64,000 bases of DNA from Roseburia sp. GTDB taxonomy: Bacteria; Bacillota; Clostridia; Lachnospirales; Lachnospiraceae. The notes under the pieces are model-generated. The model saw only the letters and a program-made list of their open reading frames with translations. It did not search any database and was not told the origin of the DNA. Positions 22,148 through 44,872 of the stretch are shown here, piece after piece. How positions within the stretch are numbered: the first letter of the stretch is position 1; the number at the start of each line of letters is the position of its first letter. The stretch lies in assembly GCA_023667765.1 (NCBI GenBank), contig JAMOZS010000006.1, forward strand, positions 537 to 64,536, given 5' to 3'. Position numbers and translations under genes: made by a program.

Positions 22148-22960
22148 ATGGTAGTACAACACAATTTAACAGCAATGAACTCTAACAGAATGCTTGGTTT
22201 AACCAACGCAACACAGGCTAAGTCTACTGAGAAGTTATCTTCCGGTTACAAAATCAATCGTGCAGCAGATGATGCAGCAGGTTTGGCTATTTCCGAGAAG
22301 ATGAGACGTCAGGTAAGAGGCCTGACCCAGGCTTCCGCTAACGCACAGGATGGTATTTCCATGGTGCAGACAGCAGAAGGTGCTCTGAACGAAGTTCACG
22401 ATATGCTTCAGCGTATCAACGAGCTGGCAGTAAAGGGCGAGAACGGTACTTTGACAGCAAGCGACCGCAGCTATATTAATAGCGAAGTTCAGCAGCTGAT
22501 GAGTGAAATCAACCGTGTAGCTTCTACCACTACTTTCAATGAGAAGAATCTGTTGACAGGTTCCATGAAAAATGGTTTGGGCTTACAGGTAGGTGCAGAG
22601 AGCGGACAGCATATTGACCTTACTATTAAGGCTATGAGCTGCGCAAGCATCGGTCTTACCGGTGATGCTACCACTTCTACCACTTCCGCAGCATTGAATG
22701 CAAGCGTTAAGAAAGCTATCGCAGCAGTAAACGAGCAGCGTTCTACACTTGGTGCCGTTCAGAACAGACTTGAGCACACCATCAATAACCTGGACAATGT
22801 AGTAGAGAATACGACCAGCGCTGAGTCCGCTATCCGTGATACAGATATGGCTACAGAGATGGTTAGATACTCTAACAACAACATCCTTGCACAGGCAGGC
22901 CAGGCAATGTTGGCACAGTCTAACCAGTCTAACCAGGGCGTATTGTCCTTACTGGGTTAA
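22148..22960 (+). CDS. fliC: Flagellin 1 (270 aa, minimal D0/D1 type)
   Basis: KLSSGYKINRAADDAAGLAISEKMR and RSTLGAVQNRLEH..IRDTDMA. Confidence 0.97.
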   Translation: MVVQHNLTAMNSNRMLGLTNATQAKSTEKLSSGYKINRAADDAAGLAISEKMRRQVRGLTQASANAQDGISMVQTAEGALNEVHDMLQRINELAVKGENGTLTASDRSYINSEVQQLMSEINRVASTTTFNEKNLLTGSMKNGLGLQVGAESGQHIDLTIKAMSCASIGLTGDATTSTTSAALNASVKKAIAAVNEQRSTLGAVQNRLEHTINNLDNVVENTTSAESAIRDTDMATEMVRYSNNNILAQAGQAMLAQSNQSNQGVLSLLG

Positions 22961-24569: not shown

Positions 24570-25379
24570 ATGGTAGTACAACACAATCTTACAGCAATGA
24601 ATTCTAACAGAATGTTAGGTATCACAACAAAGAGCCAGGCTAAGTCCACCGAGAAGTTATCTTCCGGTTACAAAATCAATCGTGCAGCAGATGATGCAGC
24701 AGGTTTGGCTATTTCCGAGAAGATGAGACGTCAGGTAAGAGGTCTGACCCAGGCTTCCGCTAACGCACAGGATGGTATCTCCATGGTGCAGACAGCAGAA
24801 GGCGCTCTGAACGAAGTTCATGATATGCTTCAGCGTATCAACGAGCTGGCAGTAAAGGGTGAGAACGGCACACTTACCGCAAGCGATCGTACTTATATCA
24901 ATAGCGAAGTTCAGCAGTTGATGAGTGAAATTGACCGTGTAGCTTCCACTACTACCTTTAATGAGCAGAATCTTTTGACAGGCTCCTGCGAAAATATTGG
25001 CTTACAGGTAGGTGCAGAGAGCGGACAGCATATTGACCTTAATATTAAGGCTATGAGCTGTGCAAGCATTGGTCTTTCCGGTGATGCTACCACCTCTACT
25101 ACTTCCGCAGCATTGAACTCCAGCGTTAAGGCAGCTATCGCAGCAGTAAACGAGCAGCGTGCTATCCTCGGTGCTGTTCAGAACAGACTTGAGCACACCA
25201 TCAACAATCTGGACAACGTAGTTGAGAATACCACCAGCGCTGAGTCTGCTATCCGCGATACAGATATGGCTACTGAGATGGTTAGATACTCCAACAATAA
25301 TATCCTTGCTCAGGCAGGACAGTCCATGTTGGCACAGGCTAACCAGTCTAATCAGGGTGTTATGTCTCTGCTGGGTTAA
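24570..25379 (+). CDS. fliC: Flagellin 2 (269 aa)
   Basis: Near-identical paralogue of flagellin 1. Confidence 0.97.
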   Translation: MVVQHNLTAMNSNRMLGITTKSQAKSTEKLSSGYKINRAADDAAGLAISEKMRRQVRGLTQASANAQDGISMVQTAEGALNEVHDMLQRINELAVKGENGTLTASDRTYINSEVQQLMSEIDRVASTTTFNEQNLLTGSCENIGLQVGAESGQHIDLNIKAMSCASIGLSGDATTSTTSAALNSSVKAAIAAVNEQRAILGAVQNRLEHTINNLDNVVENTTSAESAIRDTDMATEMVRYSNNNILAQAGQSMLAQANQSNQGVMSLLG

Positions 25380-26890: not shown

Positions 26891-26919
26891 TTGACAGTTT
26901 TTTGCCGATGGGCTATAAT
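26891..26919 (+). promoter_or_regulatory. sigmaA promoter of the Rpn gene
   Basis: TTGACA-N17-TATAAT, exact consensus. Confidence 0.85.
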
Positions 26920-27079
26920 TTATTTATCTAAAATTCAAAGTGTTCTGAACAGTATGGCGTATCAGCCGTTTTATCACTTGGATTTATACTATAGAAAAAC
27001 GGCTGGGAGTGAACACCTTACCCTTCAGCCGGGAAAGAAGGGAAGCGTGAGGAAAGAGGATAACGAAGAGGGTCTGGAA

Positions 27080-28042
27080 ATGCGCCAGCAGACTACTTTG
27101 TTTAAGGACATGATTTTGGCTGATGATAAAGCCAGATATGATGATGCCTGTAAAAGACTGCTTGCAGAAAAAATGATTCTTGCATGGATTATGAGAGCCT
27201 GTTTGGAGGAATACCGCCCATATGATGTGAAAGAGATTGCAGAAAAGTATATTGAGGGTATTCCGCAGGTGTCGGAAACAGGGATATTGTTGGAGGACGC
27301 CACATCAGGAAGTAAGATAACAGCTACAGGGGTTGAAGATATTACCATAACAGAGGGTAAAATTATTTTTGATATACGATTCAATGCAATAGCGCCAAAA
27401 AGTGGAAAGATAGAACATTATATTATCAATGTGGAGGCACAAAATAATTTTTATCCGGGTTATCCTTTGGTAAAACGCGCTATATATTATGGTAGTCGTA
27501 TGATATCGGCGCAATATGGCACTATCTTTGTAAAGTCGCACTATGAGCGAATTCAAAAGGTCTATTCTATTTGGATATGTATGAATCCGCCCAAAGAGCG
27601 CAGAAATACAATAACAGGTTATTCTATAACAGAAGATAATTATGTGGGGCATGTGACGGAAAAGAAGGAATACTACGATTTACTTACGATAATAATGATT
27701 TGTCTGGGCATCTCTGAGGAGGACAGCCATAATAAAATTCTCAGGTTGCTGTATTTACTATTTCTATCAGATAGAGAGCCGGATAAGAAATGTGAGATAT
27801 TGGAAAAAGAATTTGATATTCCAATGACAGAAGCTATAGAGAGAGAGGTGACGACTATGTGTAATCTCAGTCAGGGTGTAGAGAATAGAGGGATTGCGAA
27901 AGGAATACAACAGGGAATACAAGTATTGATTAGCGTTTTTAAGGAATTGGGAAAAACCTATGAGGAAACAACGGAGAAAGTGCAGGAGAAATTTTCTCTG
28001 ACCGAAGAGCAAGCGGCAGAGAGTATGGAAAAATATTGGTAG
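27080..28042 (+). CDS. Rpn-family PD-(D/E)XK recombination-promoting nuclease / putative transposase
   Basis: FDIRF...INVEAQ nuclease core, KRAIYYGSRMISAQ, Y..IQKVYSIWI, and C-terminal GIAKGIQQGIQ. Confidence 0.8.
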   Translation: MRQQTTLFKDMILADDKARYDDACKRLLAEKMILAWIMRACLEEYRPYDVKEIAEKYIEGIPQVSETGILLEDATSGSKITATGVEDITITEGKIIFDIRFNAIAPKSGKIEHYIINVEAQNNFYPGYPLVKRAIYYGSRMISAQYGTIFVKSHYERIQKVYSIWICMNPPKERRNTITGYSITEDNYVGHVTEKKEYYDLLTIIMICLGISEEDSHNKILRLLYLLFLSDREPDKKCEILEKEFDIPMTEAIEREVTTMCNLSQGVENRGIAKGIQQGIQVLISVFKELGKTYEETTEKVQEKFSLTEEQAAESMEKYW

Positions 28043-29790: not shown

Positions 29791-30657
29791 ATGATTTCAG
29801 TCAGAGATTTATCCAGCCAATATGGCGATACGATAGCATTGCAGAATGTCAGCTTTGACTTGGCGGAGGGAGATTTCCTCACGATATTTGGCGGGGACGA
29901 TGCAGGAAAGACTACTTTGCTTCGGATATTGATGGGGTTTCGCACGAGATATTCGGGAACGGTGAAGCTATGGGGAAAGCGGCCGAACAGACTGACCAGG
30001 GAGCAGCAGAGCCGGCTGCGGTTTTTGCCGGATGATATTATATGGGAAGGGCATCTTACCGGGGAAGAATATCTTTCCTATATACAGAGGTGCAGCGAGG
30101 TTTATGACGGAGAATACCAGGAAGAGCTATGCAGGCGCTTTGGCGTCGTTTTGGAGGAGGGGCTGTTAGACACTTCCTATCAGAACAATAAGCTGGTACA
30201 GATGATAGGAGCCTTATGTGTCAGACCGAAGTTAATCCTGCTGGATGAGCCTTCTACTTATCTTGAGACTGAGGTATATCGTATTTTATGCGAATTGCTG
30301 CAGGAGCATTGTCGGCAGGGCGGAGGCGTTCTGGTGACGGAGAAAAGTTATGAAACTGCGAGGGAGTACAGCAGCAGATGTATTTATTTAAAGGAAGGGA
30401 AAATAGCGGTAAATGCCCGGGTTACGCATCCTGATATCCGCTGTAAGGCGGTAACGGTACGGGGCGGGCAGGAAGAGTATTTGAATCAATACCTATCCCG
30501 ATTCATTTGTGAACGCAAGGGTACAAGGACATATCTGTATAAGGGAGATATGAAAACACTGGCGGCTCTGATGTATCATGCGGAGTGTGCGGATTGGATT
30601 GTGGAGGAGCTTACGCTGACGGAGGAGCTGGAAGGTAATTATGCAAGGTGGAAATAG
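29791..30657 (+). CDS. ABC ATPase-like subunit with degenerate motifs
   Basis: Walker A GGDDAGKTT, Walker B LILLDEP, signature replaced by TSYQN, no H-loop His (VTEKS). Confidence 0.75.
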   Translation: MISVRDLSSQYGDTIALQNVSFDLAEGDFLTIFGGDDAGKTTLLRILMGFRTRYSGTVKLWGKRPNRLTREQQSRLRFLPDDIIWEGHLTGEEYLSYIQRCSEVYDGEYQEELCRRFGVVLEEGLLDTSYQNNKLVQMIGALCVRPKLILLDEPSTYLETEVYRILCELLQEHCRQGGGVLVTEKSYETAREYSSRCIYLKEGKIAVNARVTHPDIRCKAVTVRGGQEEYLNQYLSRFICERKGTRTYLYKGDMKTLAALMYHAECADWIVEELTLTEELEGNYARWK

Positions 30658-31537
30658 ACAGTTAAAGGTGGTATGGCGGCGGGAGTGGGATTATCAGAAG
30701 CGTGGGCTGCTCATACAATGGGCGGTGGGAGTAAGCCTTTTGCTGCTGCTGTTTCTCATTTACAGTCTGAAGGAATCGTGGCTGTTTAACGGATTATCCT
30801 ATGTGAAGGCTTTGCCTCCGGCGCTGTATGCCTTTGTGGGATTTACGGAGGAAACCTTGCCCAGCGGCAGTCTGTTTACGTTTATAGAGCTTTTCGTGAT
30901 GTGCCTTCATGTATGGCTGGCGTGGAGCTTTGGAGCCCGGGGGATGCAGAGCATCTGGCGGGAGGAAGAGGACAATCACATTTATCTGATAGCTAATCAA
31001 TGGTGCGGCCGATATGAGCTGGCAATTTATAAGTTTACATGGTCGGCAGTAAGTATGCTGGCAACGTATGTCGCTTTGTTCCTGCCCGGGGTTGTCTTGC
31101 TGCTGGCAGGCAGCGCAAGCCGCGTGCTGTTGTTGGAAAATGTCATGGCAATGCTTGGATGGATGATAAGAGGCTGTTTTGTCTTACTGCTGCTTTTAAC
31201 AGTGTGCGTCAGCTACGCTTTGTGCTGTGGCTACAGAGAACAGACCTATTGGGCGGGCGGTGTTGTGTTTGGAACGCTTATCATAGGGAATCTGTATAAA
31301 ATAAGAGATTTGGCATGCTGGATTCTGGAACGCTTACAGATAAATGGTGAGCTTTTCAACCGGTTATTAGGCTGGTTGGACGGATTGTATTGGATTTCTC
31401 CGTTGTCATGGCTGAATCCCTTTCGTGAGGCGGGAGCGTTACAGATTACAGGGCAGACAGTGTTATGTATCATAATTGCAGGCATATTTGGACTGGCGGG
31501 TATATTCCGCTACCGAACAAGAGAACTTGGCTGGTAG
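30641..31537 (+). CDS. ABC-2 type permease-like membrane protein
   Basis: Multiple TM helices, C-terminal SPLSWLNP, overlaps the ATPase gene. Confidence 0.7.
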   Translation: MQGGNRQLKVVWRREWDYQKRGLLIQWAVGVSLLLLLFLIYSLKESWLFNGLSYVKALPPALYAFVGFTEETLPSGSLFTFIELFVMCLHVWLAWSFGARGMQSIWREEEDNHIYLIANQWCGRYELAIYKFTWSAVSMLATYVALFLPGVVLLLAGSASRVLLLENVMAMLGWMIRGCFVLLLLLTVCVSYALCCGYREQTYWAGGVVFGTLIIGNLYKIRDLACWILERLQINGELFNRLLGWLDGLYWISPLSWLNPFREAGALQITGQTVLCIIIAGIFGLAGIFRYRTRELGW

Positions 31538-31567
31538 GGCAGGAGTTCCCGAAGCAGGAAGGGAGGT

Positions 31568-32221
31568 ATGGAGATGAAAAAATATATCAGTGCAGCGTTA
31601 GTGATATTGCTTCTTGTTGGTTTCATGCCGCATACTCCGGTGGCATATGCGACGGCCGTAGTCGGAGAAGGGACTTGCGTGGACTATTGGGAGGGAAGCA
31701 TAAGCGGAAATGATGCAATCAGGACAAGGCAGCAGGATGTGGTATCGCTGCAGGTTCCGCAAAATCTGGACTTTCTTATGGACCCGTATGGGATGATTAA
31801 CGACACCCAGATTCACTCCGACAGGTATTGCTTTCGCAACACAGGCGATACAGCCGTCCGTTTAAGTCTGACCAATATTGTATGTGAGCTTGCCCAGGGC
31901 GTAGCGGTGGCTCCGGCAGAGATATCTGAGGAGGATATCCGGGAAAGTGAAGATAAGCTGATTCGCCTTCAGCTGTACTTTGAAGACGGCAGCTTTATCA
32001 CAGTGAGTCAGGACCCGGGAGTTTATGAGCTTGTATTGGAAGCGGGAGAGAGCGCAGAATTTTCCATCGGCGGCTGTATGAGCGTTGGGGCGAAGGATGT
32101 CTGGGAAGACGGCGATGCGGGAATTTCAATGATTTATGATGTGAAAAGGGTAAATGAGGAATTTGGACAGGAGTCCGAGAATAAACTTGAAAATAATTCG
32201 GAATACATCTTAAGTTATTGA
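31568..32221 (+). CDS. Secreted hypothetical protein, paralogous to 33118..34233
   Basis: Signal peptide MKKYISAALVILLLVGF..AYA. Shares the DFLMDPYGMI motif with the 33118 protein. Confidence 0.7.
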   Translation: MEMKKYISAALVILLLVGFMPHTPVAYATAVVGEGTCVDYWEGSISGNDAIRTRQQDVVSLQVPQNLDFLMDPYGMINDTQIHSDRYCFRNTGDTAVRLSLTNIVCELAQGVAVAPAEISEEDIRESEDKLIRLQLYFEDGSFITVSQDPGVYELVLEAGESAEFSIGGCMSVGAKDVWEDGDAGISMIYDVKRVNEEFGQESENKLENNSEYILSY

Positions 32222-32236
32222 GAACATAGCCGATAT
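32210..32236 (+). promoter_or_regulatory. sigma28-like promoter upstream of the surface-protein pair
   Basis: TTAAGTTA (compare TAAAGTTT), N15 spacer, exact GCCGATAT. Confidence 0.6.
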
Positions 32237-32259
32237 ATATTTCAGTAATAATTATGACC

Positions 32260-32290
32260 TACGGGAAACGCTTTAATCAGTGTTCCCCTA
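32260..32290. repeat. Degenerate copy of the 25441 palindrome
   Basis: tacgggaaacgctttaatcagtgttccccta. Confidence 0.6.
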
Positions 32291-32385
32291 ATGTACCTGT
32301 AGGGTTAAGGTGATATATTGTATTGGCAGTACAACAGCAGCATATTTTGTGACTGTAGATTTTAGAAAAATGTAAAAGGAAGTAA

Positions 32386-32414
32386 TTGACATTTCACAGA
32401 TAGATTAGTATAAT
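32386..32414 (+). promoter_or_regulatory. sigmaA promoter
   Basis: TTGACA-N17-TATAAT, exact consensus. Confidence 0.85.
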
Positions 32415-32438
32415 ATCTCTAGGAAATAAGTACTAGAT

Positions 32439-32456
32439 TGTGATTGGTATCTCACA
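32439..32456. promoter_or_regulatory. Palindromic operator candidate
   Basis: TGTGA-N8-TCACA, just downstream of the sigmaA promoter. Confidence 0.4.
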
Positions 32457-32503
32457 GCGGAGACGCTGTTTAGATATAGGGCTGGCGAGGAGGAACTGCA
32501 GGG

Positions 32504-33055
32504 ATGGCAGACAAGGATGTTACCCGTAGAATCGAGAGAGGAGGCAGGACAAAGAAAAGCGGAAATGCCGGAATAATAGTGTTTTTGTTAGCAGTTATTA
32601 TCATTATGGCGTTTCTGACAATTATTGTAGTTACCTTGCGGGGAAAGAACGATGTATCGGCTGAAAAGCGCAATGTAGTAGTCAATGCGGAGAATGTGGA
32701 AGAGATTTTGGCCAGTTTAAGTGAACAGGATGTCAATGAGCCGGGCTATTATGAAGTTACCATGAACTCCGAATGGGTATTTGAGGACGGAAAGAGCATT
32801 TCTGAAAATGCATATGTAGAAAATGCCGTTACAAATACAAACGACGTATATTTTGATGTGAATCTGAAGGATACGAACGAATTGATTTACAGTTCGCCCA
32901 TATTACCTTTGGGAAGTCATATTGAGAATATTACATTGGATAAAGAGCTTGCAGCTGGAACCTATGATTGTATCATGACCTATCATTTGGTGGATGAAAA
33001 TCAGGAGACGGTGAGTACATTGAAAATAACCCTTACAATCGAGATTCAAAATTAA
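32504..33055 (+). CDS. Membrane-anchored hypothetical protein with a beta-rich (Ig-like) ectodomain
   Basis: Basic N-terminus, single TM helix (IIVFLLAVIIIMAFLTIIVVTL), beta-strand-patterned C-terminus. Confidence 0.75.
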   Translation: MADKDVTRRIERGGRTKKSGNAGIIVFLLAVIIIMAFLTIIVVTLRGKNDVSAEKRNVVVNAENVEEILASLSEQDVNEPGYYEVTMNSEWVFEDGKSISENAYVENAVTNTNDVYFDVNLKDTNELIYSSPILPLGSHIENITLDKELAAGTYDCIMTYHLVDENQETVSTLKITLTIEIQN

Positions 33056-33117
33056 TTGCCAGCCAAAGAGCCTGTTTACAGGTTGTTTTATAATATTATT
33101 TCAAGGAGGAAAAACAT

Positions 33118-34233
33118 ATGAAATCATTTAAGAAAATCACAGCTACTGCACTGACGATGGCAATGATAGCTGCAAGCAGCATGACGGCATTTGCTGCACC
33201 TGGTGACGAGGATGAGGAGGTAACGACGCCTACAGAGACCGAAACTGAAACTGAAACCGAAGATGATGGTACTCAAACCGGTTCGTTAGGTGGAACAGGT
33301 ACTGTTGAAGGCGTTGTGAATAAGGATGTATTTGCTGTGGTTCTGCCTACAGTGGCTGAAGGAGCTACGACATTTGACTATGTTATGGACCCTCAGGGAT
33401 TAATCCTTACCACTAACCATGCAAAGTATGAGAACGCTACATTTGCAGCCGGAGCATCCGTATTCTTTAAAAATGCAAAAGTAGAAGGAGCTACGGATGA
33501 TCCTTATACCGCAACCAGTGACGCTCTTACTATTACCAATAAGAGTACTCTGGATGTAGATGTAACTCTTACGGCAACAGTTACCGCAGTAGAGGGTCTG
33601 ACTATGGCTGAGAGCGCTACTTTCGCAGCAGATGACACGGCAGCAAAGCTGTATCTGGCTCTGATTGGCGGAGAAGGCGAGACGGCCCAGACAAAGGCTA
33701 TTACTACCGAAGGTACTCAGATTACAACAAAGATGAACAAAGCTGCTGACGGCGCTTATAAAGTAGTATATAATTCTACAGATAGCGAGTATGTATACGA
33801 TTTGACGGATGAAGCAAAGGCTAACGATTATACTGGATTTTCCACTTACAGCTTCAAGCTTACCGGCGCCTGCAATACCAACACGGGCGTTGATTGGGAA
33901 GATTTGAAGGATGCAAATCCCGCTGTAGAGGTTGTATGGACGGTAGCAGATCCTACCAAGGCTCCTAAGGGCGTTTTTGAATCTGACGGAACGAACGATA
34001 TCGTAGTTTATTATACAGGAGCAAAGCCCAGCGAAGTTACCCTGACTCCTCCGGCAACAGCAGTAAAGAAGGCAGCAGTTAATTTGACAGCAGGCACCAA
34101 CCTTACGATTGATGATGAGAAGATTACTCTTAAGGCAAGCTATGTTGCAACTTTAAAGAAATCCGCTAACTATGGCGCTGGCACATATAAGATTGCTGTA
34201 AACGGAAAGACTACAGATGTTGTAATTAAATAA
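33118..34233 (+). CDS. Secreted Thr/Ala-rich surface protein, probably abundant
   Basis: Signal peptide MKSFKKITATALTMAMIAASSMTAFA, acidic (ET)n linker, CAAGGAGG RBS, flagellin-like codon usage, own terminator. Confidence 0.8.
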   Translation: MKSFKKITATALTMAMIAASSMTAFAAPGDEDEEVTTPTETETETETEDDGTQTGSLGGTGTVEGVVNKDVFAVVLPTVAEGATTFDYVMDPQGLILTTNHAKYENATFAAGASVFFKNAKVEGATDDPYTATSDALTITNKSTLDVDVTLTATVTAVEGLTMAESATFAADDTAAKLYLALIGGEGETAQTKAITTEGTQITTKMNKAADGAYKVVYNSTDSEYVYDLTDEAKANDYTGFSTYSFKLTGACNTNTGVDWEDLKDANPAVEVVWTVADPTKAPKGVFESDGTNDIVVYYTGAKPSEVTLTPPATAVKKAAVNLTAGTNLTIDDEKITLKASYVATLKKSANYGAGTYKIAVNGKTTDVVIK

Positions 34234-34271
34234 CAGAGGAAGCTATATTTTAAGAATATAGACTGGCCATA

Positions 34272-34296
34272 AAGGGGAGCGATTTTCGCTCCCCTT
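34272..34296 (+). terminator. Terminator after the surface protein
   Basis: aaggggagcg-atttt-cgctcccctt. Confidence 0.8.
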
Positions 34297-34355
34297 GTTA
34301 TCACTATCGGAGTAAATATCAGGTAGTACAATATAACAATGCAAAGAGGTTTCTG

Positions 34356-35462
34356 ATGGAAAAAGATTACAAAAAAATTTTGGTAACGCAGACTTCTATG
34401 CCTCCTTTTGAAGAATATGTGGAAGCGATACGTCCGCTGTGGGACAGCCGTTGGATAACCAATATGGGCTCTTATCATAAGCTGTTGGAAAAGAGGCTTA
34501 AAGAATATCTGGATGTTCCCAATTTTTCACTTATGGTAAATGGACATATGGCGTTGGAACTTGCCATACAGGCCTTTGGATTTCCGGAGGGAAGTGAAAT
34601 TATCACGACTCCCTTTACTTTTATATCTACGACTCATGCTATTGTACGCAATCGATTAAAACCAATTTTTTGTGATGTGAAATGGGAGGATGGTACAATA
34701 GATGAAACAAAGATTGAAGAATTGATTACAGAGCGTACTGTGGCTATTGTACCGGTACATGTGTATGGAAATGTATGTGAAATAGATGCGATTCAGCGTA
34801 TTGCAGATAAGTATAACCTGAAGGTTATCGTTGATGCCGCTCATTGTTTTGGAATAAAATATAAAGGCAGGGGAATAGGAAGTTACGGCGATGCGTCCGT
34901 ATTCAGTTTTCATGCTACAAAAGTATATCATACTATTGAAGGCGGAGGAATCGCTTTCAGAGATGAAAAATTGTATGATAAACTATATAATTTGAAAAAC
35001 TTTGGCATAAGAGGAGAAGAGCTGGTCACCGAAGTCGGCGCAAATGCAAAAATGAACGAATTCTGTGCGATTATGGGGCTCTGTAATCTGAATCACATTG
35101 ACCAAAGTATAGAAATGAGAAAACAAAAGTATGGTTGGTATAAACGGAATTTGGATAAGGCGTCTGGTCTGCGCTTTTTTGAACGGGATGAGGAAGCGAC
35201 AAATAATTATGCCTATTTTCCTGTGTTGTTAGAAGGAGAGGGCTCGGCTCGAAGAGACGAAGTATATAATCGTTTGAGACAGAACAATATTCATGCAAGA
35301 AAGTATTTCTATCCGCTCACCTCCGATCAGGCGTGCTTTAAAAATAAATATAGAAGTCTTTCGCTGGAGCGGGCAAGGATACTGGCGGAGCAGGTGCTTG
35401 TCCTGCCTATGTATGAGAGTCTACAGGAGGAAGATATAAACAGGATATGCAGTTTTATATAA
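34356..35462 (+). CDS. DegT/DnrJ/EryC1/StrS aminotransferase, VioA-like (dTDP-4-amino-4,6-dideoxyhexose)
   Basis: ILVTQTSMPP..WITNMG, IITTPFTF, VIVDAAH, SFHATK, NAKMNE. Confidence 0.85.
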   Translation: MEKDYKKILVTQTSMPPFEEYVEAIRPLWDSRWITNMGSYHKLLEKRLKEYLDVPNFSLMVNGHMALELAIQAFGFPEGSEIITTPFTFISTTHAIVRNRLKPIFCDVKWEDGTIDETKIEELITERTVAIVPVHVYGNVCEIDAIQRIADKYNLKVIVDAAHCFGIKYKGRGIGSYGDASVFSFHATKVYHTIEGGGIAFRDEKLYDKLYNLKNFGIRGEELVTEVGANAKMNEFCAIMGLCNLNHIDQSIEMRKQKYGWYKRNLDKASGLRFFERDEEATNNYAYFPVLLEGEGSARRDEVYNRLRQNNIHARKYFYPLTSDQACFKNKYRSLSLERARILAEQVLVLPMYESLQEEDINRICSFI

Positions 35463-36087
35463 AAACAGTTCCCTTAGTGTTTTCCCTTATTTTTTTCGCA
35501 GGGTTTCCCACATAGACGCTTTTTTCCGCACAATTTTCGATTACGACGGAGCCCATACCGACGATTGTATTGGCTCCGACTGTTATTTTGTCGCGTAATG
35601 CGGCGTTAGGGCCGATAAAACAATTGTCGCTTATACTGCTTTTGGAGCCGATAAAGCTGTTCAGGGAAATAAAGCAGTTACTGCCAATCTGACAATCATT
35701 TTCGACAATTGCGGAAGCATGTATAGCGGTATTGGTTCCGATGGTAACATGATGCGCAATATAGCAGAAAGGAAAGATAATGGCTCCGGGAAGGATGGTG
35801 CAATGGCTGGATACCACAGCTCTGCCGTCTATTAGAGTGGCCAGCGGTACACCATGGTCGGTATATAATTGATTTAATTTTTCCCGATACACAGGCTCTC
35901 CCAAAGCGATGAGAACCTCTGTGTTTTTAGCGATGGGATCCTTAAAAAATGTTTCGTTTGTGTAGGATACATCCTGGGTTAATTTATCGCCGATAAAAAA
36001 AATCTTATCCCACTTGTCGGATTGAAATGCCGCAATATCATATACTTCATGTGCAAAGGCGCCAATGCCTACGATTCCCAGGTTCAT
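35455..36087 (-). CDS. PglD/NeuD-like sugar N/O-acyltransferase (hexapeptide repeat)
   Basis: N-terminal MNLGIVGIG, IALGEP..REKL, left-handed beta-helix repeats, C-terminal YVGNPAKKIR. Confidence 0.85.
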   Translation of the reverse strand: MNLGIVGIGAFAHEVYDIAAFQSDKWDKIFFIGDKLTQDVSYTNETFFKDPIAKNTEVLIALGEPVYREKLNQLYTDHGVPLATLIDGRAVVSSHCTILPGAIIFPFCYIAHHVTIGTNTAIHASAIVENDCQIGSNCFISLNSFIGSKSSISDNCFIGPNAALRDKITVGANTIVGMGSVVIENCAEKSVYVGNPAKKIRENTKGTVFI

Positions 36088-36439
36088 ACTCACGTAATCC
36101 TTTCTGCTTTTTATCATACAGGCAAAATTGTTTGCGCCGCCGATGGCGGCATGTCCGGAAGTGCGGAATAAACGAAACATAAGATTATATGTAAAATACA
36201 ATATTTTTTTAGGAGTGTCAATAGTTTTATGACCGGTGCCACTGAACTGTTACAAAGCATAAAATATTTGCCGGGTGCCTGAATTTAGGAGCTATTTACA
36301 GATTACTCTATTTATTATATAATACAATCAGTTATCAGATGGAAAATCATTTGAGGCCGTGAGCAAATAGAAGCTGGTTATTTATATTTATCGGCGTCAG
36401 GGTAATGACGAAGAATAGATAGATTGATAGGGAGGAAAA

Positions 36440-38368
36440 ATGGCAGAATATATTTTCCCTTTTGATATGATTCCGAAAGAATCTGATATTATTATTTATG
36501 CTATGGGAGTTGTGGGACAGTGCTTCTATGAACAGGTTGCGAAACTTCAATACTGTAATGTGGCGGCATTGATTGATAGGGATGCGGACGAATTTTTTTC
36601 GCCTCAGTATCCCGTTGAACCATTAAGCGCCCTGGCGAAATATGCCTTTGACTATATAGTGATTGCGATTCTTGAGGACAGTATTGCTCAGGCGGTCAGG
36701 GGGGAATTAATAACAAATTATGGCGTTCCTTCCGAAAAGATAATATGGGTCAAGCCCAGGGAGCTGCAGGAAAATAAATCATTGTATAGGTTAAGCCAAA
36801 TGACAAAAGGGCATCAGGAATTGTCTTTTTGTCTGGAGGATTTTATGAAGAGAGGCAACGGCGATATAGCCTCCTTTTCCGGTGCCATCGAAGAATTAAA
36901 GCACTATTCCTATACAAATATTGAATTGTGTGAAAAATATAAAGAATATTTTATGCAGTATCTGGCAAAAGAACGCTCGCCTAAAAAGAGAATCATTCTG
37001 CTGAGATTCTTATATGAGGCAGGATGTTTTGACGGGAAATGCGCAGAATTATTTATGCGCAGTATCCGGGATATCAAAGGCAATTATGAAGCCAGAATAT
37101 GGCTGACATGGGATATTTCATGCATGGAAGCCAGAATGGCGTCTATCAGATATCATAACTTTTTCCTGGATAAAAGAGAAATTATCCGGGAAAATATTTC
37201 TCCCTTTGTTAATGTGGTTCATAGAAACGCGCAGGTTGGGGAAAAGCGGCAGCGTGATAAGAAATATATTGCCATTATAGGTCATAATTTTGACCAGACG
37301 TCATCCTCTCATTTTAAATTTATGCGGCCCTATGTAAATGAAATGAGTGCGCAGGGATATCAAATTAAAATTTTTCCCATTGACTTGTTGAGATTCAGAG
37401 AGGGAGAAAGCTTCCTCCGGCCAATCGTTGTGTTAGATAAAAGGTCCTATCTGGCCCGACAGGAATATTCGGAATTTCTGGCGCCGGAAATAGAGGTGGT
37501 AATTCCCGAGGGAGCCACCATGCAGGAGAGAATCGAACATTTTGCGGAACATCTGTATGCCTTTCATCCGGACATAGTATATGATTTTTCCGGTGAATAT
37601 GCCTTCTGCTCCCCCATCTATTATGATGCCTTTCCAACTGTGGCCATGCCCATGAGGGGATATGCGTCCAGCGCATGGTTTGACAAATATGTGGCAAGGG
37701 ATAAGAAAATATGTATAGAGGAGAATTCCATATTTCATTCTGTTTCTGAGGAACAAATGGAAGAAGCATTGCCGGATTTATGCAAGTACAGTATACCCTG
37801 CAGCAGGCCCTTTGGCAGGTCGGAGCATGGATTTAAAGAGGAAGCATTCTTAATTGTAACCAGCGGATATCGTCTGCGGCAGGAGCTGACCAGGGATTTT
37901 GTGGATTGTGTAGGTTCTTTCTTAAAGGAACATACGGATGCGGTCTGGCTGCTGGTAGGGGACGCCATATGCGATTACATCAAGCAGGCGTATGGCGCTT
38001 TGCTGGACGAGAAGAGGATTATCGAATGGGGATTTGAACCGGATTTGTATGGCTTATATGGAATGTGTGATATTTACTGGAATCCGAATCGCAACGGCGC
38101 TGCAGGATGTATTTATATGGCCATGCAATGCGGAATACCAATCGTATCCTCTGCTTTCCCCTCTGATATTCTGCCCCAGCTGGGCAGAGAAAATGCTGTT
38201 GAAGGAGATTATAACGAGTGTAAAAAATATGCGGATATTCTCTATGCAGATAAAGAAGTGCGTAAAGAAAAGGGGAAATTAATGTTGGAACGAACCCGGA
38301 ATACTCCGGGCGGGGTAGAAAATTATGTAAAGAAGCTCATTGAGATTGGGGAGAGCATCTTAAAATAG
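36440..38368 (+). CDS. GT-B glycosyltransferase-like protein with an N-terminal Rossmann-like module
   Basis: C-terminal DIYWNPNRNGAAGCIYMAMQCGIPIVS (GT4-like). N-terminal IIIYAMGVVG. Confidence 0.6.
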   Translation: MAEYIFPFDMIPKESDIIIYAMGVVGQCFYEQVAKLQYCNVAALIDRDADEFFSPQYPVEPLSALAKYAFDYIVIAILEDSIAQAVRGELITNYGVPSEKIIWVKPRELQENKSLYRLSQMTKGHQELSFCLEDFMKRGNGDIASFSGAIEELKHYSYTNIELCEKYKEYFMQYLAKERSPKKRIILLRFLYEAGCFDGKCAELFMRSIRDIKGNYEARIWLTWDISCMEARMASIRYHNFFLDKREIIRENISPFVNVVHRNAQVGEKRQRDKKYIAIIGHNFDQTSSSHFKFMRPYVNEMSAQGYQIKIFPIDLLRFREGESFLRPIVVLDKRSYLARQEYSEFLAPEIEVVIPEGATMQERIEHFAEHLYAFHPDIVYDFSGEYAFCSPIYYDAFPTVAMPMRGYASSAWFDKYVARDKKICIEENSIFHSVSEEQMEEALPDLCKYSIPCSRPFGRSEHGFKEEAFLIVTSGYRLRQELTRDFVDCVGSFLKEHTDAVWLLVGDAICDYIKQAYGALLDEKRIIEWGFEPDLYGLYGMCDIYWNPNRNGAAGCIYMAMQCGIPIVSSAFPSDILPQLGRENAVEGDYNECKKYADILYADKEVRKEKGKLMLERTRNTPGGVENYVKKLIEIGESILK

Positions 38369-38421: not shown

Positions 38422-39765
38422 ATGGGTACAATAACCGATAAATTTGTTCAGTATTTATATGATTTAACGCAGCAGGATTTTTCTGACCAAGTCAAATGCA
38501 AAAGTAAAGAGCATCTGATTGATTATCTGGCAGCGGCGTATGGAGGAGCCGGCGTCAACCGGAAGGTGACGGAGGAAATTGCCGGGGATTATCCGGGTGA
38601 TGTTCACGTCATTGGATATCATAAACGAGTCAGTATGGATGCGGCAATTCTCTTAAATGCTTTCAATGCTCATGTCCTGGAGTTGGACGACGGGCATCGC
38701 AATGCCATGATGCATTTGGCTGCGCCAATCTTTTCGGGATTGTTGGCGGTTGCGGAAAAAAAAGAAAAGAATCTGGCGGATTTGCTGAAGGGCGCCGTTA
38801 TCGGATACGAGACGGCAGTCCGTCTGGGGACGGTCATCCAGCCCTCCCATAAGAGGAAGGGATTTCATGCCACCGGTACATGCGGCGCCATCGGCACGGC
38901 CATGGGAATTGCCGCCATGCTGGGGTATGATAAAGCCGGGATGAAGAATGTGCTGAGCGCAGCGGCTACATCCGCATCAGGGCTGTTGGAAGTCATTACC
39001 GGACAGTCAGAGCAGAAACCCTATAATGTGGCCCAGGCTGCGGCGGCCGGGACGAATGCGGCTCTGTTTGGAAAATACTTTTCGGGGCCGGAGGATGTGT
39101 TGGGCGGACCGAGAGGATTTATAAAGTGTTTCAGCGATAAGAGTGTGGAAGAAGAACTTACAAAACCTCAGGAAAAGCTTGGTATATGGGGGGCCTATAT
39201 GAAACCGTATGCCGCGTGCAGGCATTGTCATGCCCCTATTGAGGCGGCGCTGAATCTCAGAAAAGAATATGACTTTGCCGTTACGGACATTGAGGCGGTG
39301 GTTGTGACTACCTATGAGCTGGCAGTATATGGACATGACCATTGGAGTATTACCAGTGTGGGAGAGGCGAAGATGAGCATTCCTTATAGCGTGGCGGCGG
39401 CGCTTTTATATCATACCGCAGGTGCAGATGCGTTTACCGAAGATAAGTTCAGGGATTCCCGAGCTTGTGAGCTTGCCCGAAAGGTAAAAGTGGTAAGTTC
39501 AGAGGAGCTGACAGCGCTGACCAGAGAGAGGCGGGCGGCAATCGTGACGATTCATCTGCAGGACGGAAGAATATGGGAAAATCGTGTGGATTATCCCAAA
39601 GGGGAACCCGAAAATCCCATATCCCAGGAGGAACTGGAGGCCAAATTTGTCTCGCTGGTTACTTCGGCAGGGTACAGTGAACCATACTGCACAGATATTT
39701 TAAAGAGGATTAACGGGTCTGAACCAATGAAAATAAGGGATTTGCTGTCGGCAATGGAAAGGTAA
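38422..39765 (+). CDS. MmgE/PrpD family protein
   Basis: LELDDGH, HLAAP, GFHATG, KPYAACRHCHAPIEA, and YPKGEPENP motifs. Confidence 0.9.
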   Translation: MGTITDKFVQYLYDLTQQDFSDQVKCKSKEHLIDYLAAAYGGAGVNRKVTEEIAGDYPGDVHVIGYHKRVSMDAAILLNAFNAHVLELDDGHRNAMMHLAAPIFSGLLAVAEKKEKNLADLLKGAVIGYETAVRLGTVIQPSHKRKGFHATGTCGAIGTAMGIAAMLGYDKAGMKNVLSAAATSASGLLEVITGQSEQKPYNVAQAAAAGTNAALFGKYFSGPEDVLGGPRGFIKCFSDKSVEEELTKPQEKLGIWGAYMKPYAACRHCHAPIEAALNLRKEYDFAVTDIEAVVVTTYELAVYGHDHWSITSVGEAKMSIPYSVAAALLYHTAGADAFTEDKFRDSRACELARKVKVVSSEELTALTRERRAAIVTIHLQDGRIWENRVDYPKGEPENPISQEELEAKFVSLVTSAGYSEPYCTDILKRINGSEPMKIRDLLSAMER

Positions 39766-39777
39766 ACAGGAGGAAAT

Positions 39778-40821
39778 ATGCCAAGAGTTTCGCTGGAAAA
39801 GATTGATCATATCACAAAATATGTGCTTCTAAAATGCGGCGTGGATAAGGACAGTATAGAGATTATTCAGCAGACGATTCGGTTTGCCAACCGGCGTGGA
39901 GTCGCCACCCATGGTGTGGGCAGACTGCCGCTTTATGTCAAAAAAATCCAAAGTGGAACCCTGAATCCTGTGAATTGCATGGAGCAGGTCAGCTCCAGTG
40001 GCGCAGTCGCCGTCTATGACGCCCATAACGGGTTTGGACAGGTTGCGGCCGAATGGGCCATGAAGGATTGCCTGGAGCGTGCCGGGACAACCGGTATTGC
40101 GGCGGTTGGTGTGCGAAACAGTCATAATTTCGGTATGGCAGGATATTTTGGCGAGATGGCGGCCCGGCAGGGGATGGCGGCAATTATCTTTGCGAATGCG
40201 GCTCCGGCCATAGCTCCTACGGGAGGGGCCAAACCGCTGCTGGGAACCAATCCTCTGTGTTATGCTTTTCCGGGCAGCGATACGCAGCCCCCCGTTATTT
40301 TAGATATGGCAACATCCGTAGCCGCCAGAGGGAAAATCCGGCTTGCGGCCAAAAACGGTGAAAAGATTCCCCTGGACTGGGCCATGGATAAGAACGGGAA
40401 ACCCACGGAAGACCCAAATGAGGCGCTTGCGGGCTCTCTGTTTCCGATTGGCGGATATAAAGGGTACGGCCTGGCGTTGTTTGTGGATATGTTTGCCGGA
40501 CTGCTGACAGGCTCGGCCTATGCGGGGGGAGTGCAGCCCTTAAGTAAGACAGAGGTTCCCTCCCGGAACGGGCATCTGTTTATTACTTTGGATGTAAAGA
40601 AATTTGTTGATGAGGCGGAATACCGAACGAGACTGGATATTCTGAGAAGGGAAATTCTTAGCTGCGGCGCTCCCGGAAATGTGTTATTTCCCGGAGAGCG
40701 GGGTTATCGGGAAACTGACAAAAATACAGAAACGGTGGAGCTTCCCCTTAAGCAGATTCAGGAGATTAACAAACTGGCAGATACACTTTCCGTCCCGGAA
40801 CATCTGGAAATCGTAACATAG
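39778..40821 (+). CDS. Ldh_2-family (malate/L-sulfolactate-type) oxidoreductase
   Basis: RGVATHGVGRL, NSHNFG, GTNPL, DMATS, GGYKGYGL. Confidence 0.9.
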   Translation: MPRVSLEKIDHITKYVLLKCGVDKDSIEIIQQTIRFANRRGVATHGVGRLPLYVKKIQSGTLNPVNCMEQVSSSGAVAVYDAHNGFGQVAAEWAMKDCLERAGTTGIAAVGVRNSHNFGMAGYFGEMAARQGMAAIIFANAAPAIAPTGGAKPLLGTNPLCYAFPGSDTQPPVILDMATSVAARGKIRLAAKNGEKIPLDWAMDKNGKPTEDPNEALAGSLFPIGGYKGYGLALFVDMFAGLLTGSAYAGGVQPLSKTEVPSRNGHLFITLDVKKFVDEAEYRTRLDILRREILSCGAPGNVLFPGERGYRETDKNTETVELPLKQIQEINKLADTLSVPEHLEIVT

Positions 40822-40885
40822 CCACAGGCTGTTCTATCCGTGAGATGATAAGAACGACGGGGATACATGAGGAGAAAATAAATAT

Positions 40886-42022
40886 ATGAGACATCACCAA
40901 TACAACCCGGATTTCCAATTTGTGAAGGAACCGGTAGAGTTCTGTAAGTATACGGAGCGGGAGCTGCTTCAATATTGTCTGGGGGCAACTATGTATATGC
41001 CGGGCACGAAGGATTTCGCAGCCGCCATTATCGGCAGAAAATATCCGGGACTTACCTCCATGGTGCTTTGTTTTGAAGACGCCTGCAGGCTGGAGGACGT
41101 CCCTGCGGCGGAGGAAAATTCCATTCAGCTGCTTCATTTGATAAGTGATAAAATGGAAGCGGGAGAGATAAGCTATCGGGAACTGCCGTTGATTATTTTC
41201 AGGATAAGGAATATGGAGCAGTTTCATAATTTTGCCGAGCGGCTGGAGCCGAGGCATATGAAGCTGATAACAGCGTTTAACTTTCCCAAGTTTAATTCGG
41301 AGAACGGGGAGGCGTACTATAGTTATCTACGGGAATTAAACGAAAAGTTTGGCGAAATTATTTACGGTATGCCCATTATGGAAGACCGGAGAGTGGCTTT
41401 TAAGGAATCCCGGATGGAGGAGTTATTGGCGGTCAGGGATATTCTGGCAAGGTATAAGGATATCGTTTTAAATATTCGGGTGGGGGGAACGGATTTTTCT
41501 TCCTGCTTTGGCGTGAGGCGGGGCATTAATTATACGATATATGACATTATGACGGTTCGGGATTGTCTGATGGATATCTTGAATGTGTTTTCCAGGGACA
41601 ATGAATATACGCTTTCCGGGCCGGTTTGGGAGTACTTCCGGGCAAGCAAGGAAATGAGATGGAAAAATCTGCCGGAGTTTGACTTTACGGAAACTCTGAT
41701 TAAACGGGAGCCCATTGTAAATGACGCCGTTGACGGTTTGTTGCGGGAACTGATTTTGGACAAGGCGAATGGATTTATCGGAAAAACGATTATACATCCT
41801 TCCCATTTGAATTTTGTAAACGGTATGTTGGCCGTTACCCGGGAGGAGTATGAGGACGCCTGCCAGATTTTACAGACGTCCGGAGGAGTGATAAAGAGTG
41901 CGGACGCTAATAAAATGAATGAGATTGGCCCTCATAAGAACTGGGCGGAGAAGCTGTATATGCGGGCAATGGCTTACGGTGTGATTGAAAATGAGTCGGA
42001 GTACCTGAAATTATTTGGATAG
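40886..42022 (+). CDS. HpcH/HpaI aldolase / citrate-lyase-like TIM barrel (C-C bond lyase family)
   Basis: LGATMYMPGT, LCFEDA, NIRVGGTDFS, GFIGKTIIHPSH, KMNEIGPH. Confidence 0.8.
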   Translation: MRHHQYNPDFQFVKEPVEFCKYTERELLQYCLGATMYMPGTKDFAAAIIGRKYPGLTSMVLCFEDACRLEDVPAAEENSIQLLHLISDKMEAGEISYRELPLIIFRIRNMEQFHNFAERLEPRHMKLITAFNFPKFNSENGEAYYSYLRELNEKFGEIIYGMPIMEDRRVAFKESRMEELLAVRDILARYKDIVLNIRVGGTDFSSCFGVRRGINYTIYDIMTVRDCLMDILNVFSRDNEYTLSGPVWEYFRASKEMRWKNLPEFDFTETLIKREPIVNDAVDGLLRELILDKANGFIGKTIIHPSHLNFVNGMLAVTREEYEDACQILQTSGGVIKSADANKMNEIGPHKNWAEKLYMRAMAYGVIENESEYLKLFG

Positions 42023-42059
42023 ATTGGGATAGATTGGGATAGAAAAGAGAGGGATAATT

Positions 42060-42953
42060 ATGAAGGAGACCAGAGCCTTTTTAAAATCGATAGGAATGCC
42101 GGACAGGGATGCATATGATTTGCCTGATTCTCTGAAGACTTTTGCGGACGGAGGACAATATCGTTTTGAGGTGCCCGGAATTCAGGGCCCGAAGGTAATG
42201 GAAGCTCTTCTGGAGGAGATGGATAAATATGGGATATGGCTGCACCGGGTGACCCAGACTAAGGGAATTATGCTGTTGACTGACAACGAGATACTCCATA
42301 TGGTTCAGCTTGCAAAGGAACAGAAAATTGATTTGATTCTGGCAATTGGGCCGAGGGCTACCACTGATACAAGCGCTTCTGTAAATACGCCCGAGGGGGT
42401 TCGTATGGGATACCGGTTAAGAGGACAGGAACAGGTGGTCCGCGCAGTAGAGGATGTAAAACGGGCGGCGGCATTGGGGTGCCGATTCTTTTTGGTTTAT
42501 GACGAGGGCTGTCTGTGGCTGCTAAACGAGATGAGGAAGGCCGGGGAGATTCCCGGAGACTGCCGATTTAAGGTTTCCGCTCATATGGGGCATGGGAATC
42601 CATGCTCCGCCAGACTGCTGGAAAGCATAGGCGCCGATTCCATCAACCCTGTGAGAGACATCCAGCTCCAGATGCTGGCAGCGATACGTCAGGCAATAGA
42701 GATTCCGATAGATATCCATACGGAGAACCCAAAATCCACAGGGGGCTTTATCCGACATTATGAAGTGCCGGAGATGATTCGTATTGCGGCGCCAATCTAT
42801 TTAAAGACGGGAGGCTCGGTGGCCCAGACCCACAGCTGGGAATCGACGACTGAGGATGCGAAGAAGAGGGCGAAACAGGTGTCTCTTGTAAAGAGGATGA
42901 TAGATACTTACTATCCGGAGGCCGTCCAGTCTCTTCGGGGAAGTGTTGAATAA
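42060..42953 (+). CDS. U32-peptidase-like TIM-barrel protein of unknown function
   Basis: KVSAHMGHGNP..GADSINP..PIDIH pattern, recognised only loosely. Confidence 0.5.
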   Translation: MKETRAFLKSIGMPDRDAYDLPDSLKTFADGGQYRFEVPGIQGPKVMEALLEEMDKYGIWLHRVTQTKGIMLLTDNEILHMVQLAKEQKIDLILAIGPRATTDTSASVNTPEGVRMGYRLRGQEQVVRAVEDVKRAAALGCRFFLVYDEGCLWLLNEMRKAGEIPGDCRFKVSAHMGHGNPCSARLLESIGADSINPVRDIQLQMLAAIRQAIEIPIDIHTENPKSTGGFIRHYEVPEMIRIAAPIYLKTGGSVAQTHSWESTTEDAKKRAKQVSLVKRMIDTYYPEAVQSLRGSVE

Positions 42954-42978
42954 GAGGATGCTGGGGCAGGAGTGTGTT

Positions 42979-44241: not shown

Positions 44242-44278
44242 GGATAGGGCAAGGTATGCTTTGAAGGAGGACTGTGAA

Positions 44279-44782: not shown

Positions 44783-44859
44783 GTCAGAGCCTCAAATTGC
44801 AATCGCAGCCGAGAATTTGAGATTCTCGGCGCGGTGTCATCGCAGTAAGCTGCTCTGAC
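44783..44859. other. Structured intergenic element
   Basis: Outer stem gtcagagc/gctctgac, inner stem gccgagaat/attctcggc, alternative pairing ctcaaatt/aatttgag. Confidence 0.5.
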
Positions 44860-44872
44860 AGGGAGGATTAGT

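Follow-up and report, generated by a model that had tools for sequence, protein, structure and literature searches.

The window, by which we mean the whole stretch of 64,000 nucleotides (nt) of Roseburia sp. that was analysed, carries three consecutive open reading frames (ORFs) on the + strand that are the subject of this work: gene A (31568-32221), gene B (32504-33055) and gene C (33118-34233). An earlier note, made from the sequence alone, had placed the three ORFs at these coordinates, where they do exist, and had described them as a module of two paralogous secreted subunits with a membrane protein. Such an association is real and recurrent in other genomes, but its core is the pair B-C and A is peripheral. 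The best reading of our data is that B-C constitutes a dedicated two-gene cell-envelope operon, almost confined to the Lachnospiraceae. The features of the locus are the following:

31568..32221 (likely start 31574), + strand: A, predicted secreted single-domain paralogue of the N-terminal domain of C, 217 aa (signal peptide, hhalign)
32386..32414, + strand: sigma-70-type promoter of B-C, TTGACA-17-TATAAT (12/12 match, the only such promoter in the scan)
32455..32468, + strand: leader hairpin CAGCG-N4-CGCTG in the ~90-nt 5' untranslated region of B, present in the minimum-free-energy fold
32504..33055, + strand: B, predicted type II membrane protein (single-pass) whose ectodomain is an Ig-like beta-sandwich, 183 aa (AlphaFold2, alignment)
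33118..33291, + strand: predicted signal peptide of C (aa 1-26), then its variable and acidic (ET)n linker (aa 27-58) (sequence, low alignment occupancy, pLDDT <50)
33292..33966, + strand: conserved N-terminal beta-sandwich domain of C (~aa 59-283; peak conservation, pLDDT 85-98, ~13 strands, aligned to A)
33967..34233, + strand: C-terminal Ig-like repeat of C, CBM_X2-like, one copy (sub-threshold Pfam match, PDB 1ehx)
34272..34296, + strand: GC hairpin after C (11-bp perfect stem, dG -20.3 kcal/mol, z -4.0)

B is the most conserved component, with a mean column identity of 45% and 26 invariant columns in the family alignment. Its N-terminus is basic and is followed by one hydrophobic helix. 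Structures were predicted with AlphaFold2 (AF2) fed with the family alignments, one model being obtained for B and one for C. In the B model (mean pLDDT 79.4) a transmembrane (TM) helix occupies residues 22-47 (H22-47) and a short helix residues 65-72, while residues 85-181 form an all-beta Ig-like sandwich with a pLDDT of ~95, which agrees with the single-pass protein with a beta-rich ectodomain proposed previously. The family is composed of more than 666 clusters at 90% identity; its representatives at 50% identity number 1372 at E <= 1e-3, 562 at E <= 1e-10 and 198 at E <= 1e-30. The best 150 matches are all stand-alone proteins, mostly of 170-220 aa, apart from a few shorter ones (likely fragments) and one of 261 aa. 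Pfam (E up to 1), NCBIfam, PADLOC, PHROGs and PDB profile searches returned no family match for B, and Foldseek against the PDB gave generic Ig/beta-sandwich matches only (a GbpA domain, E 2e-3, TM-score 0.38). Two affiliations of B were rejected: that of a truncated C paralogue (hhalign probability 0.15%) and that of a flagellar family protein, the sole match being that of the TM segment to FliL at E 0.2, whereas the ectodomain is all-beta and unlike FliL. A phage or defence origin was rejected as well, since PADLOC and PHROGs gave no match for A, B or C and no relative of B was found in 2.9 million IMG/VR viral contigs.

C is a protein of 371 aa with a signal peptide (cleavage between AFA and AP), a TETETETE linker and the C-terminus TTDVVIK. 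It is acidic, with 17% Thr, 14% Ala and one Cys. The AF2 model (pLDDT 84.8) is disordered to residue 50, then displays a sandwich of ~13 strands at residues 60-283 and a 7-strand Ig-like domain at residues 295-370. A word-seeded search recovered ~50 clusters at 90% identity for the C family, where the mean column identity is only 20%, well below that of B; the N-domain (residues 61-280) is conserved, whereas the linker and the C-terminus are variable. Matches to hidden Markov models (HMMs) of the domains reveal an architecture of one N-domain followed by 1-8 X2-like repeats of ~97 aa, which is typical of displayed surface proteins. In this account the related loci bear labels (L001, L019, L083 and so on), and the repeat copies are:

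window C: 1 copy
L002: 2 copies
L017: 6 copies
L014: 8 copies

Some members bear Flg_new or Big_13 (Big) modules in place of the X2-like repeats. Giant members of the family are those of L014 (3085-6309, - strand, 1074 aa, 8 repeats) and L017 (10806-13454, + strand, 882 aa, 6 repeats), and the member at L056 3147-4775 has two tandem N-domains.

The last 90 residues of C match Pfam CBM_X2 (PF03442) with 20.6 bits, against a gathering threshold of 28.9; the corresponding score is 25.7 bits in L002, also below the threshold, and precomputed PF03442 matches exist in five C-family members. A PDB profile search with the C-terminal domain pointed to the scaffoldin X2 module 1ehx (E 0.041), with nothing significant. 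Beyond this sub-threshold CBM_X2 match, Pfam (E up to 1), NCBIfam, PADLOC and PHROGs yielded nothing for C; the same four resources yielded nothing for A, and PDB profile searches gave no significant sequence match for A, B or C. The homologues are named 'hypothetical protein' or left blank in the source databases, and literature searches found no description of the B-C gene pair. The statement that the family could not be named is therefore borne out by these searches.

The neighbourhood of B was examined in a scan taking one genome per species, which gave 79 loci with 81 B genes; HMMs made from the family alignments were searched against the ORFs of all 79 loci. A C-family gene lies directly 3' of B and on the same strand for 78 of the 81 B genes, with a median gap of 58 nt, and the three B genes without a downstream C are at contig ends. 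Reverse look-ups seeded on C homologues, the two most divergent included, found B directly upstream in 4/4 cases. The invariant unit is consequently B-C and not A-B-C: co-occurrence in other genomes, anticipated for all three genes, holds essentially always for B-C, but A has three relatives only. Most of the 79 loci are labelled Lachnospiraceae (including Butyrivibrio, Pseudobutyrivibrio, Dorea, Hungatella, Acetatifactor and Eisenbergiella). The other labels are Clostridia, Clostridium sp. and Clostridiaceae, with one metagenome-assembled genome (MAG) of Oscillospiraceae (L080), and one MAG labelled Bacteroides, probably mis-binned, gives two loci (L028, L053). Some genomes contain two or three copies of B-C.

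Around 80% of the loci have a single secreted paralogue. In 11 loci (~14%), a second C-family paralogue, here called U-type, stands directly upstream of B (order U-B-C). The U-type proteins share 36-63% identity with each other across genomes and only 25-31% with their own downstream partner; to judge from these values, they form an old, distinct and anciently diverged subfamily. At a further four loci, the position directly upstream of B is taken by a different N-domain relative (family 30). The A protein of the window is neither U-type nor family 30, and every paralogue found near B (A, U-type, family 30) retains the N-domain. An obligate intermolecular disulfide between Cys156 of B and Cys252 of C was considered as the sole candidate covalent link and rejected: the Cys of B is invariant (80/81), but the aligned Cys of C is present in just 28 of the 78 partners, and 25 C proteins are Cys-free.

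B is preceded by 282 nt within which the promoter lies; the consensus scan for promoters and terminators covered 8.5 kb. The promoter, the leader hairpin and the ribosome-binding site (RBS) are kept in three relatives (including L083 and L085) whose B proteins are 68-78% identical, the stem of the hairpin being invariant and its loop variable. Rfam detected no structured RNA upstream of B, nor is the fold of the leader exceptional (z -1.06). An invertible promoter was rejected for the window, where no convincing inverted repeats surround the B promoter. Between B and C there is a weak hairpin at 33069-33084 (AGCCUG-UUUA-CAGGUU, then GUUUUAUAAU) of unremarkable stability (z -0.19), which might conceivably modulate the B:C ratio. 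C is preceded by an AAGGAGG box 8 nt before its ATG, so that the strong RBS, like the (ET)n linker, had been correctly seen. Biased codons, also claimed for C, are only modestly so: its effective number of codons (Nc) is 45.6 (GC3 0.37), between the two flagellins of the window (41.9) and most of the neighbouring genes (47-53). As to the terminator attributed to C, the hairpin at 34272-34296 is strong, but its U-tract is weak (UUGUUAUC), for which reason the consensus scan passed over it; its role as terminator of C is plausible from the sequence. Rfam also reports a sub-threshold Termite-leu RNA at 34268-34341 (+ strand; 28.8 bits against a gathering threshold of 51, E 0.0023), which lies between C and the DegT gene, overlaps this hairpin and is probably due to chance.

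The sequencing runs that contain the window sequence are genomic only. Transcription was observed for the locus of Lachnospiraceae bacterium A4 (L019), where B and C are found on a single contig in each of four independent mouse-gut metatranscriptome runs. The RNA contigs begin at 7794-7885, that is 125-215 nt upstream of B (which begins at 8010), and in three runs they end 0.8-1.4 kb beyond C. B and C are thus co-transcribed in this organism. The depth of the B-C contig compared with its flanks was:

run X9: 101.8 versus ~15-25
run X16: 70.9 versus ~0.4-9
run X20: 17.2 versus 0-5

The depth of B-C is ~4-10 times that of the flanking genes, which, contig depth being a poor measure of expression, suggests a relatively high expression in vivo. 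The organism of locus L072 was absent from the RNA runs examined, in which only conserved flagellin termini cross-mapped.

Gene A appears to belong to another transcription unit, the first two genes of which are:

29791..30657, + strand: ABC transporter ATPase (Pfam ABC_tran 2.2e-13), first gene of the ABC-permease-A unit
30641..31537, + strand: polytopic membrane permease, 298 aa, overlapping the ATPase gene (crude TM count 5, with at least 5 hydrophobic segments)

Pfam and NCBIfam scans gave no match for the permease. A gap of 36 nt without a promoter inside separates the permease from A, and B has its own promoter; we infer from this arrangement that A is part of the ABC operon and lies outside the B-C promoter unit, B-C being an operon separate from A. 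The A protein has a Sec-type signal peptide (cleavage between VAYA and TA, judged by eye) and ends with EYILSY. A GGGAGG box precedes the first ATG of the gene by 1 nt and the second by 7 nt, and M3 is invariant among the homologues; from this spacing and this conservation, the true start of A is probably the second ATG, at 31574. A is rare: besides the protein of the window, only 3 relatives were found among 5.8 billion proteins searched, and the synteny ABC-permease-A-B-C is found at all loci of these three homologues. Orthologues aside, A is closest to the C-terminal domain of a protein of 798 aa in L030 that comes after an ABC ATPase and a permease, and L001 has a comparable unit of ABC ATPase, permease and large protein. 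There is hence a second recurrent unit, made of an ABC ATPase, a permease and a secreted protein with an A-type N-domain (window 29791-32221; L001 1-2635; L030 339-4639). The secreted protein has 217 aa in the window; in L030 it reaches ~800 aa and includes Ig-like Big_13/PKD-like segments. The unit is always near a B-C pair.

Pairwise BLASTP of A against C recovers only the first of the two motifs that A and C had been said to share, with a marginal E-value of 0.004. Profile-profile comparison with hhalign (4 sequences for the A family, 46 for the C family) gives a probability of 93.4% and an E-value of 2.5e-7; the alignment spans residues 56-197 of A and 67-281 of C, that is the whole conserved N-terminal domain with both motifs, and the likeness is beyond chance. 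As this alignment covers the entire N-domain, A is, by profile comparison, a stand-alone, divergent and remote paralogue of the N-domain of C.

The presence of secreted paralogues brings up the fibre or S-layer assignment made originally. As elaborated here, C would be the major and A or the U-type protein the minor subunit of a fibre or 2-D lattice, polymerising for example by N-terminal strand donation, with B as nucleator or anchor. The secreted paralogues do share a conserved N-terminal segment G-x-G-x-VEG-x-V-x-KDVF-x-VVLPT ahead of the sandwich, the distinct upstream U-type paralogue of 11 loci fits a major/minor split, the promoter and RBS are strong and the in-vivo RNA high, and C is acidic and Thr/Ala-rich like many S-layer proteins. 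However, Foldseek of the C model against the PDB and BFVD found no TasA-, pilin-, Ena- or S-layer-like fold, but generic beta-sandwiches with TM-scores of 0.1-0.2; one of them is RbmA (E 2e-4, TM-score 0.10), and TasA is outside the top 50 PDB matches for the whole-protein model. Over the C and B models together, the matches included RbmA, FimC, GbpA domains and lectins, with TM-scores of 0.1-0.38. SipW, sortase, SLH and CWB2 were not found by Pfam, NCBIfam or among the neighbouring genes. In the AF2 monomer, the N-terminal segment is packed against the domain to which it belongs (pLDDT ~88). Most loci have one secreted paralogue only, and the A of the window lies in the ABC operon and differs from the recurrent U-type. 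Nothing in these data indicates a fibre or an S-layer, and we regard polymerisation as improbable.

In the window, the genes upstream of the locus encode FliD, FliS, FlgN, two short flagellins, glycosyltransferases (GTs) and LicD, and the genes downstream encode DegT, an acetyltransferase, GTs and an organic-acid pathway. A motility and glycosylation locus is accordingly a true description of the window. Over the 79 loci, however, a flagellin occurs within 8 kb in only ~12, and the constant partner of B-C is a hypervariable island of glycan enzymes. Within 8 kb, glycan-biosynthesis families are present in 66 of the 79 loci, with B-C at the 5' end or inside such clusters. Their gene content is extremely diverse (GT1/2/8, LicD-like, IspD, DegT, pyruvyl transferase, Glf, NKWYS, ATP-grasp, TagF-like, NeuB). 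In the window, the GC content is 0.41-0.42 over 32001-38000 against 0.47-0.49 on either side, and the drop begins at B-C; this fits a horizontally exchanged or hypervariable segment. In Butyrivibrio proteoclasticus, 13 low-GC exopolysaccharide (EPS) loci have been described, two of them flanking flagellar genes (Kelly et al., PMC2914790), and by analogy this agrees with genomes that have several variable glycan loci each.

Such a context might mean that B-C is an accessory of the glycan pathway, namely an extracytoplasmic non-enzymatic lectin-like organiser, a chaperone or a length/attachment factor for the wall glycopolymer or glycoconjugate particular to the strain, and that C is not displayed. 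The position in or at the 5' end of highly variable clusters would then recall the conserved genes that head variable polysaccharide loci, the several copies per genome would parallel the multiple EPS loci of Butyrivibrio (PMC2914790), and the repeats at the C-terminus of C are similar to an Ig module that binds carbohydrates. Yet only 29 of 978 neighbouring genes encode polytopic membrane proteins, from which most neighbouring enzymes are judged cytoplasmic, and the 8 kb around B-C mostly lack flippases, polymerases and ligases. With so few polytopic neighbours, many of the islands look like cytoplasmic protein-glycosylation islands, the product of which would never meet B-C. C moreover evolves fast for a component of a machinery. 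We consider this role unlikely.

The proximity of flagellins admits another explanation, that B-C is associated with the flagellum, for instance as a filament- or hook-proximal envelope protein, or that C is glycosylated, besides flagellin, by the flagellin glycosylation island. It accords with the window, L002, L061, L072, L080 and L092, where B-C is a few kb from flagellins inside flagellin glycosylation islands, and with carriers belonging largely to flagellated genera (Butyrivibrio, Pseudobutyrivibrio, Lachnospiraceae A4). It does not accord with the scarcity of flagellins at the other loci, some of which are in teichoic-acid- or capsule-like clusters (L087, with Bac_transf and TagF-like genes) or adjoin a contractile injection or phage-tail-like cluster (L088 1-5530, with sheath, tube, gp19-like and GPD genes), these loci having no flagellar genes within 10 kb. 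Furthermore, B and C are predicted to use TM or Sec targeting and not flagellar type III export, and the all-beta B is unlike FliL. A link with the flagellum seems to us very improbable.

We return to the reading of B-C as a dedicated envelope pair, which is drawn from the strict pairing, the asymmetry of conservation between B and C, the N-domain retained in the paralogues, the Sec and TM targeting and the lack of a covalent anchor. The likeliest mechanism, which we propose tentatively and with slightly less than even confidence, is that B holds C non-covalently, for retention or display. According to this mechanism, B would be inserted N-in/C-out with its conserved Ig-like domain near the outer face of the membrane; C would be exported by Sec and its signal peptide removed, and its N-terminal beta-sandwich domain (~220 aa) would dock non-covalently on B. 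The variable CBM_X2-like Ig repeats of C would then reach into or through the thin wall as a strain-variable surface protein, and may contact the strain-specific glycopolymer produced by the adjacent island. A would be a single-domain accessory protein, paralogous to the docking domain, expressed with the upstream ABC exporter and probably working with it.

Several points weigh against this mechanism. The contact between B and C is one that we infer, and the surface location of C is likewise a prediction. The linker of B is short (~35 aa), so that a B-bound C may sit unexposed at the interface between membrane and wall. With a sub-threshold CBM_X2 similarity, glycan binding by the repeats is speculation. 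The disulfide, which was the only candidate for a covalent link, is rejected as said above, and the limit of contig depth counts here too.

Among the systems already described, we would tentatively place B-C with the non-covalently anchored Gram-positive surface-protein operons. The WxL/DUF916-DUF3324 csc clusters of Enterococcus and Lactobacillus associate paralogous secreted beta-rich proteins with a membrane-anchored partner, for a non-covalent display without enzymatic domains. The locus studied here likewise combines paralogous secreted beta-rich proteins without covalent anchor and a membrane-anchored partner. It differs in that A, B and C have no WxL, DUF916 or DUF3324 domain (Pfam, E up to 1) and there is no small LPxTG partner, in that B-C is found in Lachnospiraceae within glycan islands, and in that B is a protein of ~180 aa with an N-terminal TM helix. 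The TasA/TapA/SipW system of Bacillus similarly has a secreted beta-sandwich subunit of ~230 aa without wall anchor and an accessory protein encoded alongside, and a strand motif 'x-N-x-S/G-x-x-D-V' is superficially common to both. By contrast, A and C lack a Peptidase_M73/camelysin domain or a SipW-dependent signal (Pfam, NCBIfam, E up to 1), and no SipW-type signal peptidase is encoded among the LicD, ABC ATPase, permease, DegT and acetyltransferase neighbours.

The loci of S-layers and secondary cell wall polymers (SCWP), such as the S-layer cassette of C. difficile with CWB2 and the SLH proteins of Bacillus with csaB, are comparable in that a highly expressed gene for an acidic and variable secreted protein stands by variable glycan genes, in the pyruvyl transferases of some B-C loci, and in the repeated modules at one end of the protein. 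They differ because no SLH or CWB2 was found in A and C of the window or in 10 diverse large C-family members, and because B-C has an obligatory membrane partner, B. With the CBM_X2 modules of clostridial scaffoldins, the C family shares a repeat of ~97 aa and weak but recurrent matches (1ehx included); unlike them, C scores under the gathering threshold and has no context of cohesin, dockerin or CBM3. Lastly, sortase-anchored pilins and adhesins are distinguished by the LPxTG that A and C lack at their C-termini, as seen by ORF inspection and Pfam, and no sortase gene is nearby. The absence of LPxTG, SLH and sortase reported by the earlier note is thus confirmed, and CWB2 is absent too.

A broader proposal is that B-C is an unrecognised surface-display system of the Lachnospiraceae, with the N-domain of C and A as the anchor, B as the receptor and the Ig repeats as strain-variable stalks, possibly phase-variable and co-diversifying with the glycan island; we hold this whole to be possible but doubtful. 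Lachnospiraceae are dominant commensals of gut and rumen, and their flagellins are well-known immunodominant antigens. To our knowledge, their other envelope proteins are almost uncharacterised. If the proposal were true, the system would count, with the flagellins, among the major variable surface antigens of flagellated gut commensals. Were C displayed via B, a novel mode of anchoring Gram-positive surface proteins non-covalently would be added to those known, and there would be a point of entry for typing strains, discovering antigens and displaying proteins on the surface of anaerobes that are hard to engineer. What is new here is a large unannotated protein pair, strictly co-inherited, transcribed in the mouse gut and located at the variable glycan loci that define the surface identity of strains. 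At the very least, Pfam could gain two new domain families, the ectodomain of B and the N-domain of C and A.

The possible phase variation in this proposal comes from a recombinase cassette with flanking inverted repeats that stands ahead of the operon in many genomes. In at least 7-8 of 10 testable related loci, a gene of the phage-integrase family is located upstream of B-C inside inverted repeats of 22-31 nt with 0-2 mismatches (core TTCGCAGA/TCTGCGAA), spanning ~1.45-1.58 kb:

L007: 4230-5731
L021: 2977-4458
L032: 4802-6275
L039: 3280-4856
L046: 6337-7786
L052: 4670-6173
L054: 3738-5307

In L043 the integrase gene is opposite in orientation to B-C. From its layout, the cassette looks like a Hin-like invertible cassette with its own tyrosine recombinase, and the B-C/glycan operon may be phase-variable. 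Directly upstream of B and in the same orientation, 24 of the 79 loci have a TnpB/Cas12f-like gene of ~454 aa, often after the integrase (for example L051 6075-7439, L007, L009, L025 and L031). Pfam assigns it Cas12f1-like_TNB (2e-10) and a weak OrfB_IS605; it could be a remnant of an insertion sequence at the border of the island or a TldR-type RNA-guided regulator.

Further features were observed in the flanks of the window. The two short flagellins (22148-22960 and 24570-25379; 270 and 269 aa) have the N and C helical regions only, with a GT2 gene between them, and a PD-(D/E)XK transposase-like gene (26891-28042) is located between the flagellins and the LicD/ABC genes. Within the glycosylation island, the block 38422-45727 encodes PrpD/MmgE, Ldh_2, a C-C bond lyase, a 297-aa protein of unknown type, an ATP-grasp ligase and fumarase alpha/beta. 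It is kept in the relatives L083 and L085, and its composition hints at a glycan decorated, unusually, with an organic acid or an amino acid.

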